This document shows positions 1 through 3,000 of a stretch of DNA of 4,586 nucleotides, one piece after another; position 1 is the first letter of the stretch; each line of letters begins with the position of its first letter. Source of the stretch: a virus (lineage: Duplodnaviria; Heunggongvirae; Uroviricota; Caudoviricetes). A program made the position numbers. The stretch lies in IMG/VR virus record IMGVR_UViG_2541047442_000023; one strand, given 5' to 3'.

Positions 1-3000
1 AGGGGCGGCAGAGTTATCCGAATTGTAAAATTTGGTATCGTGCGCCATCTGTTTTCTCTGCTGGCGCAGCAGGTGCCAGTTGTTCAGGCTGACGGATGGA
101 TTGTAAACCAGAACGACCAGAAAAAACAAAACCCGCCGAAGCGGGTTAAGTGCGGGTGCGTTGAGGATGCCTGACACATCAGCGGTGGCGAGGGATTTCT
201 CCCCCGCCTGGTCTCTTACTCCTCAGGTTCGTAAGCTGTGAAGACAGCGACCTCCGTCTGGCCGGTTCGGATTCGTACCTCGCAGAGGTCTTTCCTCGTT
301 ACCAGTGCCGTCACTATGACGGTTAAACAGATGACGATCAGGGCGATTAACATCGCCTTTTGCTGCTTCATAACCTGCTTCTCCTTGCCTTTCGGCGCGT
401 AAGAGGCTAACCTACGTTTGTGAAGCATAGATTGGGCCTCAGATTAATGTTAAGCGTCTTGCAGGACGCGTAATGTTAACTGGGGCTTTTCTCTGTCTGC
501 CTTACGGTGGCATGCCCGAGGCAGACAGCCTCAAGCACCCGCAGCAATTCTACTTAACTCTCGCTTTACAGCAAACCGTTTTGCCCGATATGGGAATTCC
601 CATACGGAATGAATTCAGTTCCCCAGGCGCTCCATCAAAAACACAACCAGGCAGTAAACACCCACAACAGCAATAACAGCCAGAGCGCCTTCCATTACCA
701 GTGAAATATCATCCGACATATTCCCTCCCTTGGTGTGAATCCCGGCGAACGTTTTTACCCCCACCGACAAATAACATATACTAGAAAAGCAATAGCTATA
801 GCAACGCCTGCAAATGCATCTGGCCGGCTCATTGGTTCTCCCCCTGTGTCGCTTCTACTGCGATCTGACTGGCGTATTCGTTAATGGTAACGATAAGTTC
901 TTGCTCGGCCTCATCCAGACAACTACCGATACCTCGCCTGTCCACTTCAGAAGCATCGAAATCTGCACGAAGCCTGGCGACCTTCAGGATTGCGGACAAC
1001 ACCTCATCAGGGATTGCCGGAGAGTTGGTTGACGTTTCCGAGATTATCCGAAAATTATTGGTTGACGAACCCTTATTTTCCCGAAAGTTTCCAGCCTGAA
1101 GCATGGCGGCGCGGTGACACCAGATAATCCAGCCAAGCGCCATATCCCATGCCATGTAATCTCTATCGCCATTTTTTGCTCTGCGGCGATCTACAGATTC
1201 TCCGAAACGCTTCTCCATAAATAATTCATAGGCTGCTCGTTCATCCGATACTGCTGCCAGTGATGCCAGCGCAATCCGTGCCAGCTCTTCCGCTTCTTCT
1301 GCTGGAAGCACAACGTTGCTACCCGGTCCGTATGTTTCGCGCCAATGCTGGATTGTCAGCAGTCGATCTTTGGTAATAGTGGTCATAGCTATTTCACCTT
1401 AATCTCAACATTTCGCAGCTTTAGCTCTACTGGCATGTCTGACTTTCCTGTTAATGCTAATGCGAGATTTTCTGGAGTAATGAGAGCAGTTATTGTTTTC
1501 CCCATCGCCAGACGAATAATCATTCGTATTTCGCGATCGTCACATGCTCCTGGTCGAACAATTGATATTTGTCCGTTCATCTCACTCTCCTTTGATGCGA
1601 ATGCCAGCGACGCGTAATGCGTGTTCTAGGTCAATCAGGTAAAGCCAACTGCCATTTTCTTTAGGTATCATGACATGTCGCTCATCTGCATTTATCGGGT
1701 GTCCATATCGAAGGTCGTAGCGAGTCGGTAATTGAACTTCCCGCGCTTCCAGTTCAGCAATACGCTTGCTCCCATCAGAGATAACGCCTTCGTAATACTC
1801 ACGCTGCTCGTTGAGTTGTGATTTTGCTTCTTCCAGTCCATCCAGCAAATCAGCGATAATATCCGCTTCCCGATGACGGATGTGACGCTTAAACGCAGCA
1901 AGAGCCGCATCACAATCCCGTTCAGCATTTGGGCTGTCCGGGGTAGCCTGATACCACGCCAGCGTCGATTGATAGTTTTGTGCTGCCTCACGCAGTGCCT
2001 GATAGTCAATCTTGCCCACTGGCTGCCTCCTTTGCCGGGATTTCTAACTTTTGAGTGGTTGTATCAAATTCAAACAACTTAACCACGTCATCAAACAGGA
2101 CATAATCACCATCAGGATCTTCAGTCATATCAGCGCCACAATCCTGACCGCACGAGTCGCAACCTCCCATATCAAGCTCGTATCGCTTCAGGTTCGCGAT
2201 ATTTGATAAATTCAGCGCCAGTATAGCCAGATCATTAACCTCGTCTGCGATATACCCTGCACCATGTCCATACATTTCAATGCGGGATATGATTTCTTCT
2301 ACACGTTGTTTTGTGATCGTCATTTTTCTCTTCACTCCGATATACAAGGATTACTACACCCCCTCTGCTGATTGCGCGAGCTGGATCCCCTGGTTCCATG
2401 CCGTCAATTCCGAAGGCTTCGAAAAATGCATCTATTGCCTTTTGGCGTTGCTCCTGCTTACGGCGTTTATTCCATTTTTTCATGAACAACAGTGACAGCC
2501 ATCGTCCGCTGCAGAACATGATGTAGAAATAACCAAGGAGCGCTAGGCCGGTGTTCAGGGCTGTATCGATCGTTATCGTGGTGTTGATGTTCACTTCACA
2601 CCTCTCTGTTTGTTGATAAGTTCAATATCCTGCTGGCAACTGGCGCAAGCTCTGCATCCACGAACAGCCAGGCGTCGCCGCTCATCTATCGGATCGCCAC
2701 ACTCGCAACAATGAGTAGCAGATGGGGCATTACTATCGGATTTGTATTTTTGCAGGGAGAGATTGCGCTGCAATTCTTCGATTTCAGCGGCGTTGTCGAT
2801 GATATCTGCCATTTTCCTTTCCTTCAGGCATGAAAAAAGGAGCCGAAGCTCCTTTGGTTTTAGAATTCGAATTGCCTTGCCCGCAGGCTTTTCAGCATTG
2901 GTCTGGCCCGCTGAACTACGAAACTCGACTGGTCAAGCCGTGCCGCCTCTCTCAGTAGCACATCTCTGTTCTTCGTCACCATGTAGATGGTCTCAAACGC

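Follow-up and report, generated by a model that had tools for sequence, protein, structure and literature searches.

Why should two genes in one phage gene array encode proteins that begin alike and end in unrelated sequence? The question is raised by a 4,586-nucleotide (nt) stretch of IMG/VR virus record IMGVR_UViG_2541047442_000023 (Caudoviricetes), which was analyzed whole and is called the window below. Its minus strand carries one gene for a protein of 185 amino acids (aa) and another for a protein of 105 aa, and an earlier note on this DNA had claimed that the two products are similar at their N-termini, diverge at their C-termini, and reflect modular shuffling. We find that the shared N-terminus, a segment of ~45 residues that we call the head, is very probably an autonomous, selected and recombinationally mobile module in a combinatorial protein family.

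The shared N-terminus of the 185-aa and 105-aa proteins

The heads of the two proteins align with 11 identities over 21–22 positions. They are ~42% identical as protein, and the similarity reaches approximately residue 57 of the 185-aa protein and residue 52 of the 105-aa protein (YELDM). A resemblance of this kind might be due to chance or composition, as the segment is short and its second predicted helix is rich in Ala, Glu and Leu and was masked as low complexity by tblastn. The alignment statistics refute this, however. The Smith-Waterman score of the first 60 residues was 58, as compared to 19.8 ± 3.9 after shuffling (0 of 2000 shuffles reached it), and that of the first 22 residues was 36, as compared to 14.7 ± 3.4 (1 of 2000). 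BLASTP of the full proteins with compositional adjustment returned E=8e-6, with 26/81 identities between residues 3–81 of the 185-aa protein and residues 10–86 of the longer, TTG-initiated open reading frame (ORF) of the 105-aa gene. A profile-profile comparison of the two families with hhalign gave E=1.2e-5 at a probability of 81%, and the 185-aa protein matches phrog_3126, the profile of the 105-aa family, at E=0.008. The probability that chance explains the similarity is thus negligible. The C-terminal parts, in contrast, score at chance (26 vs. 22.6 ± 4.1, reached by 391 of 2000 shuffles). When the 145-aa Ead/Ea22-like, 63-aa and DUF4752 neighbors were tested, none contained the head, and hhalign of the 145-aa protein against the head gave a probability of 0.1%. 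Pairwise and profile alignments therefore confirm the shared N-terminus and the diverged C-termini that the earlier note had described.

Since the two genes are only ~620 bp apart on the same strand, one might suppose that the heads arose by a recent duplication or gene conversion between array neighbors. Over the aligned codons, however, the heads have 52% nucleotide identity and no long identical runs, which rules out recent gene conversion. Each head type is also widely spread on its own, with the 105-aa family found in Salmonella phages as well. A recent common origin within this array is extremely unlikely.

AlphaFold2 was run with shallow family alignments, and only secondary structure was taken from the models. 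Both were of low confidence, with a mean predicted local distance difference test (pLDDT) score of 52.9 for the 185-aa protein and 45.7 for the 105-aa protein. The former has helices at residues 6–19 and 29–45 of its head, and the latter, with the same topology, at residues 5–18 and 26–42. The head is thereby predicted to be a helix-loop-helix hairpin of ~45 residues.

The head in other proteins and phages

A profile of the head alone was searched against 1.84 billion representatives clustered at 50% identity, yielding 726 matches at E≤1e-3. Among the best 150 of these, nearly all align profile positions 1–44 to their own residues 1–45, in proteins with total lengths of 60–385 aa. The best 141 matches include 109 with the 185-type head, at a mean identity of 88%, and what follows these heads comprises 77 different 12-mers. 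When Pfam was run on 108 head proteins, 24 had DUF551, four had the MazG-like PF04447, Ead_Ea22 and DUF4752 were found once each, and the rest had nothing. The longer head proteins look like chains of small modules joined by Pro-rich or NFRENK linkers. Tails can also be common to the two head types, as P0260 with a 105-type head and P0282 with a 185-type head have a tail module in common (75% identity over 57 aa, E=8e-28). The shuffling of an N-terminal module onto variable C-termini, which the earlier note had suggested from two genes, thus extends far beyond them, and the survey of homologs that it called for finds DUF551, PF04447 and many tails without a Pfam match behind the same head.

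A strictly N-terminal position in nearly all of the best 150 matches, together with the high conservation of the first residues (M-T-T-I-T-K-E/D-R-L), could also be expected of a targeting or turnover signal, such as a localization, packaging or proteolysis tag, rather than of a folded adaptor domain. But with 45 residues and two predicted amphipathic helices the head is not a short peptide tag, and its sequence has no signal-peptide-like hydrophobic stretch. In addition, P0263 and P0268 have two heads in tandem, so that the second copy is internal. We judge a targeting signal to be very unlikely.

Head DNA is present in 718 of 5426 complete Escherichia coli genomes, with up to five copies in each. 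A tblastn search found the head in at least 190 phage records, a count that rests on half of the head, as the low-complexity filter reduced the query to residues 1–26. Besides lambdoid phages, carriers of the head include the P22-like Salmonella phage SE1, where the head gene follows EaE and EaA, phage P7, where it is Upf89.5 and follows an Ead-like gene, and a Klebsiella phage. The modules that follow the head are different in each of SE1, P7, the Klebsiella phage and Escherichia phage Av-05. The head gene is also downstream of Ead/Ea22-like genes in three further sequences (L006–L008), where it belongs to the classical early-left region and is bordered by anti-RecBCD or Ead/Ea22-like genes on one side and by xis-int on the other.

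Av-05 (L012) is a virulent member of the Vequintavirinae, and its head-bearing gene at 901–1563 encodes several modules, the last of them GWNACRAAML, which shows that these modules are not restricted to temperate phages. In P0248, P0319, P0348 and P0351, the head or the head and mid modules are fused to a MazG-like dATP/dGTP pyrophosphohydrolase (PF04447, best E=5.2e-43), the only enzyme-like tail among those observed.

DNA breakpoints and selection on the head

Alignment of the window with other genomes reveals sharp breakpoints at 1251 and 1386 (head), at 1014 (linker/tail), and at 2320 and 2018 (105-aa gene). L007 and L008 match this part of the window over 1251–1386 alone, which corresponds to codons 1–45, at 90–92% identity and with both flanks unrelated. 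In L006 it runs from 1620 down to 1251 and ends there. The head is therefore a discrete mosaic unit that extends from the start codon to the IALASLAA junction. In SS52 (L002) the similarity breaks between 856 and 1014, with DUF551 replacing the tail, so the tail has been exchanged.

Could the head be kept mainly as DNA? It would then be a 5′ recombination anchor or a translation-initiation region that hitch-hikes on recent mosaic exchange, and its peptide would have no function. Many E. coli copies of the head that precede different tails do have 90–100% identity as DNA, and the junction falls at the start codon. Moreover, an earlier estimate of the ratio of non-synonymous to synonymous differences per site (pN/pS), made from the closest copies, used only ~11 substitutions. 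We repeated the estimate with more divergent copies. The Klebsiella phage copy has 67–71% nucleotide identity to the heads compared, and synonymous differences are near saturation (pS 0.66–0.79), yet pN is just 0.13–0.18. The resulting pN/pS of 0.18–0.24, from 22–26 synonymous and 12–18 non-synonymous changes, argues for selection on the peptide and indicates that the head is under purifying selection as a protein. The 105-type head, at only 52% nucleotide identity, has the same helix-loop-helix pattern, and the alternative heads B, C and D preserve both this pattern and the IALASL junction. Conservation of the head as DNA with a functionless peptide is thus quite unlikely.

Modules of the 185-aa protein

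The exact 185-aa protein is encoded in three E. coli assemblies. Separate segments of it match separate PHROGs: residues 1–49 match phrog_3323, residues 45–96 match phrog_660, and residues 91–179 match phrog_14306. Four parts can be distinguished, the head, mid module, linker and tail (Table 1). The mid module is nearly wholly invariant among relatives bearing at least four different heads. The low-complexity linker has a pLDDT below 50 over residues 93–123, and other mosaic proteins, from L007, L008 and P7, have this linker too. The tail of the window protein recurs behind other heads and ahead of DUF551 (P0001–P0004, P0046). Tails among the relatives are DUF551, which is the commonest, the window tail, the window tail followed by DUF551, or a Cys-rich, zinc-ribbon-like tail. 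The junctions between modules are conserved, and consist of IALASL-E/A-A, Pro-rich linkers (APPAPVVP, SPVTPDGW) and the NFRENK linker.

Table 1. Genes, protein modules and RNA of the array, by position in the window.
Feature	Position	Strand	Evidence	Remarks
AntA/P22_AR_C antirepressor gene	2860-3489	-	PF08346 E=3.7e-27; phrog_377 E=1.4e-97	First array gene
TraR/DksA-type zinc-finger gene (lambda Orf73-like)	2591-2812	-	PF01258, phrog_54, TIGR02419	
DUF4752 gene	2277-2594	-	PF15944 E=2.5e-39	
105-aa gene	2006-2323	-	phrog_3126	ATG start at 2323
Divergent head copy, 105-aa protein	2198-2323	-	Alignments and AlphaFold2	Codons 1-42
Ead/Ea22-like 145-aa gene	1582-2019	-	PF13935 E=2.2e-13, 51.4 bits	
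63-aa gene	1389-1580	-	PHROG match (phrog_1222)	
185-aa mosaic gene	829-1386	-	ORF	Head, mid, linker, tail
Head module	1252-1386	-	phrog_3323	Codons 1-45; MTTITKDRLLTIQHWRETYGPGSNVVLPAEEAEELARIALASLAA; landmark MTTITKDRLL...IALASLAA
Mid module	1096-1251	-	phrog_660	Codons 46-97; VSDERAAYELFMEKRFG...WIIWCHRAAML
Low-complexity linker	1015-1095	-	No PHROG	Codons 98-124; QAGNFRENKGSSTNNFRIISETSTNSP; NFRENK...TSTN
Tail module	829-1014	-	phrog_14306	Codons 125-185 and stop; IPDEVLSAILKVARLRADFD...; landmark IPDEVLSAILKV...
Small ORF	615-770	-	ORF	
sok RNA	366-540	-	Rfam, 114.9 bits	
Hok/Mok ORF	216-428	-	PF01848 E=3e-23	

The 105-aa gene and its start codon

A mechanical ORF call extends the 105-aa gene to a TTG at 2347, which gives 113 aa, while the earlier note had argued for the ATG at 2323. 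The full-length match to phrog_3126 (positions 1–105 of 105, E=3.3e-66) covers residues 9–113 of the TTG ORF. All 120 of 120 homologs begin with M-x-ITKQR, with N for K in one, and none is extended upstream; their start thus includes the shared motif, and does not lie downstream of it. The length called by the Prokaryotic Genome Annotation Pipeline (PGAP) and by other gene callers is 105 aa, whatever the context. GGAG and GAAGAG are found 5–11 nt upstream of the ATG, as for a ribosome-binding site, and a G-run is found ~11 nt before the TTG. Prophage Sp5 of O157:H7 strain Sakai is without the 105-aa gene, and the similarity of the window to Sp5 begins at 2320 and resumes at 1988–2018, next to the Ead-like gene start at 2019. 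This makes the 105-aa gene a discrete insert, and assigns the DNA between TTG and ATG to the 3′ end of the DUF4752 gene. Judged from these sequence comparisons, the ATG at 2323 is the correct start, which settles the start codon of this gene in favor of the earlier proposal.

The first 47 nt of the 105-aa gene are also the 3′ end of the DUF4752 gene, and it is within this end that the mosaic junction at 2320 falls. Relative to Sp5, the insert lies between this 3′ end and the start of the Ead-like gene, of which 31 nt are conserved (L001 4781–4811). As a result of the insert, the DUF4752 protein has a different and longer C-terminal tail here than in Sp5 (105 aa vs. 94 aa).

By its alignments, the 105-aa protein joins an ancient, divergent version of the head to an acidic module that contains Cys. 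Two representatives of its family, P0250 and P0252, resemble natural fusions with the downstream Ead/Ea22-like protein: P0252 runs on into MSEIDYQALRE..., and P0250 terminates in ...AAGIRIKGE. These fusions hint at a functional link between the 105-aa and Ead/Ea22-like proteins, or may be frameshift artifacts.

A probable combinatorial family of accessory proteins

Considered as a whole, the head is likely to be an autonomous module in a combinatorial, beads-on-a-string family of accessory proteins. It would be one of a small set of interchangeable heads, and the proteins bearing them would be encoded in the exo-xis/ea, nin and att-proximal regions of lambdoid, P22-like, P1-like and some other enterobacterial phages. 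Conserved head-coding and linker-coding DNA would provide in-frame crossover points that give rise to new combinations, and homologous recombination at such DNA is, on balance, the route of exchange that we favor. The head would in turn give the variable tails a constant function. By analogy with Ea22, whose shared N-terminal and coiled-coil part forms tetramers with swappable C-termini, this constant function might be self-association or docking to a common partner, a role that we put forward tentatively and consider possible rather than probable. Head proteins would be early products with a role in host takeover or in the lysis-lysogeny decision.

Several points weigh against such a family. 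Inspection of the profile matches covered the best 150 of 726, and some short representatives from metagenomes and read archives are probably truncated or frameshifted ORFs that inflate the diversity of tails. The core of the 105-aa family (residues 1 to ~95) is nearly constant, with variation mostly beyond it, and the data examined contain few swaps directly after the 105-type head. Neither the 185-aa nor the 105-aa protein has any match in Pfam, NCBIfam, PDB or PADLOC. With the low mean pLDDT of both models, the hairpin is a statement about secondary structure only, and oligomerization or docking of the head is pure inference by analogy.

A more far-reaching idea is that the head is a universal, undescribed adaptor of enterobacterial phages, which plugs a recombining set of small effector modules (DUF551, MazG-like pyrophosphohydrolase and dozens more) into one host or phage hub. 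The family would then be a combinatorial system resembling polymorphic effectors, for host takeover, lysis-lysogeny tuning or counter-defense, and conserved linker-coding DNA would steer the in-frame exchange of modules. We think this unlikely. The earlier note had given as an example a partner-binding head common to different effector or anti-defense tails, a suggestion that the results neither support nor contradict. Scans of Pfam, NCBIfam and PADLOC returned no match between the window tails and a known effector, defense or anti-defense family. PADLOC-DB, a library that does not cover anti-defense proteins, gave 0 families for all eight array proteins at E≤0.01. NCBIfam had no match for the array proteins scanned, except for the TraR-like one. 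Searches of PDB sequences returned no hit for the 185-aa, 105-aa or 63-aa protein, and those for the 145-aa protein did not rise above chance.

Under the combinatorial accessory family, which we prefer, the head is a defined and searchable module of ~45 residues, absent from Pfam, that marks a large family of uncharacterized phage accessory proteins, many of them in Shiga-toxin (Stx) prophages. Finding its constant role, be it self-association or a common target, would make hundreds of tail modules approachable together, and would also be relevant to the influence of exo-xis-type genes on prophage induction and Stx release.

Genomic setting and neighboring features

An E. coli contig (L003) ends in a sequence 100% identical to the full window; there the array has the contig end on one side, and on the other a KGG/ymdF-like gene and the rut operon. 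Among the complete E. coli genomes in the collection, none has 80% of the window in one place. In O157:H7 Sakai, the lambda-like prophage Sp5 has its attR-proximal end at the equivalent position, and the end of the Sp5 feature corresponds to window position ~4057. The array is attR-proximal in an Sp5-like Stx prophage, next to ymdF and rutG. Positions 2320–4586 are 98–99.7% identical to Sp5 and Stx phages, and positions 1014–2604 are 98.5% identical to DNA lying between the replication protein P and RusA genes in the nin region of a different O157 prophage. The window itself is therefore mosaic. The gene order, with TraR/Orf73-like, Ead/Ea22-like and variable genes, is of the exo-xis/ea type; lambda Orf73 has been described as a homolog of TraR (PMC9239242). 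The earlier note had placed the array in a prophage early region. This is apt for the gene set, but not for the location, as the array here is attR-proximal and the block from DUF4752 to hok sits in the nin region in SS52, L004 and L005.

From the TraR-like gene to the 185-aa gene, neighboring genes overlap or are 1–2 nt apart. A scan of the window for promoters and terminators gave counts that were not above those in shuffled sequences, and we therefore claim no transcription unit beyond this tight or overlapping spacing. The 63-aa gene is directly upstream of the head gene in several contexts, with synteny kept in L002, L004, L005 and L006.

Rfam gave a match to sRNA-Xcc1 (RF02221) over its full length at 3530–3618 on the minus strand (69.1 bits, E=1.4e-11), just upstream of the antirepressor gene. 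This RNA may serve the array as a leader or regulator, and the promoter-like site with the best score in the window (3737–3708, minus strand, 10/12) is located upstream of it. Just inside the prophage end, positions 3852–3938 contain a tandem repeat with a 31-nt unit, TGTTTGGGGCACTATTGGGGCAAAATGTGGT, in 2.8 copies with a 96% match; these repeats may act as arm-type sites for integrase, or as binding sites of another kind associated with att. A KGG-repeat stress-protein gene (ymdF-like, 4480–4586, plus strand) abuts the prophage end and finishes at the last bases of the window. At 35 codons, it may be a form shortened by the nearby prophage integration.

At the distal end of the array, the sok RNA and the Hok/Mok ORF lie side by side and make up a complete toxin-antitoxin locus of the hok/sok type. 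The small ORF between the 185-aa gene and hok encodes a hydrophobic product of 49–51 aa and is called in L003 and L005. It has zero family matches in Pfam, PHROGs, NCBIfam and PADLOC.

Comparison with known systems

The closest parallel is the Ea22/Ead family (PF13935), which includes lambda Ea22 and the Stx-phage variants V1–V3. Ea22 variants have a common N-terminal segment and a coiled coil followed by unrelated C-terminal domains, full-length Ea22 is tetrameric, and DUF551 has been termed a portable domain (PMC10834534). The proteins terminate in K/R-G-E (PMC7093339), and the genes downstream of ea22 are variable, in a highly mosaic region (PMC8614690). Head genes are found in the same neighborhood, usually just downstream of the Ea22-like gene, and like Ea22 they are early accessory genes of unknown biochemical function. 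Their products also resemble Ea22 in having a common N-terminus and swapped, unrelated C-termini that include DUF551. However, neither the 185-aa nor the 113/105-aa product matches PF13935 even at E≤1 (gathering score 27 bits), and both the 185-aa and 105-aa proteins are without the central coiled coil. Their ends also differ from K/R-G-E, with ...QGENQ in the 185-aa protein and ...ASGQD in the 105-aa protein, while the 145-aa neighbor ends in ...IKGE. As far as these alignments go, the head resembles the Ea22 paradigm, a constant N-terminus with swappable tails, without belonging to the Ead/Ea22 family.

Most close relatives of the 185-aa protein consist of the head, mid module, linker and DUF551 (PF04448), and are annotated as "DUF551 domain-containing protein". 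Nearly all of the nearest relatives carry PF04448, but the window protein has no match to it. Its tail is a different helical module (phrog_14306), one that precedes DUF551 elsewhere. The label "DUF551 protein" thus covers just one exchangeable tail. Both window proteins are already in public databases as hypothetical proteins. In PHROGs, the 105-aa protein belongs to phrog_3126 over its full length, and segments of the 185-aa protein match phrog_3323, phrog_60, phrog_660 and phrog_14306. These five PHROGs mix modules, do not define the head as a domain, and are without functional annotation.

Polymorphic toxin and effector systems combine a constant N-terminal delivery domain with a variable C-terminal effector. 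The head family is alike only in design, with constant N-terminal modules, hypervariable C-terminal modules and recombination at conserved junctions. Unlike polymorphic toxins, its members have small modules and belong to phage early accessory operons, and the Pfam, NCBIfam and PADLOC scans found no toxin, immunity or secretion domain. The family has exo-xis-type neighbors, sharp breakpoints at its boundaries, and modules that occur with different partners in other phages, and exemplifies the mosaicism that is well documented for lambdoid accessory genes.

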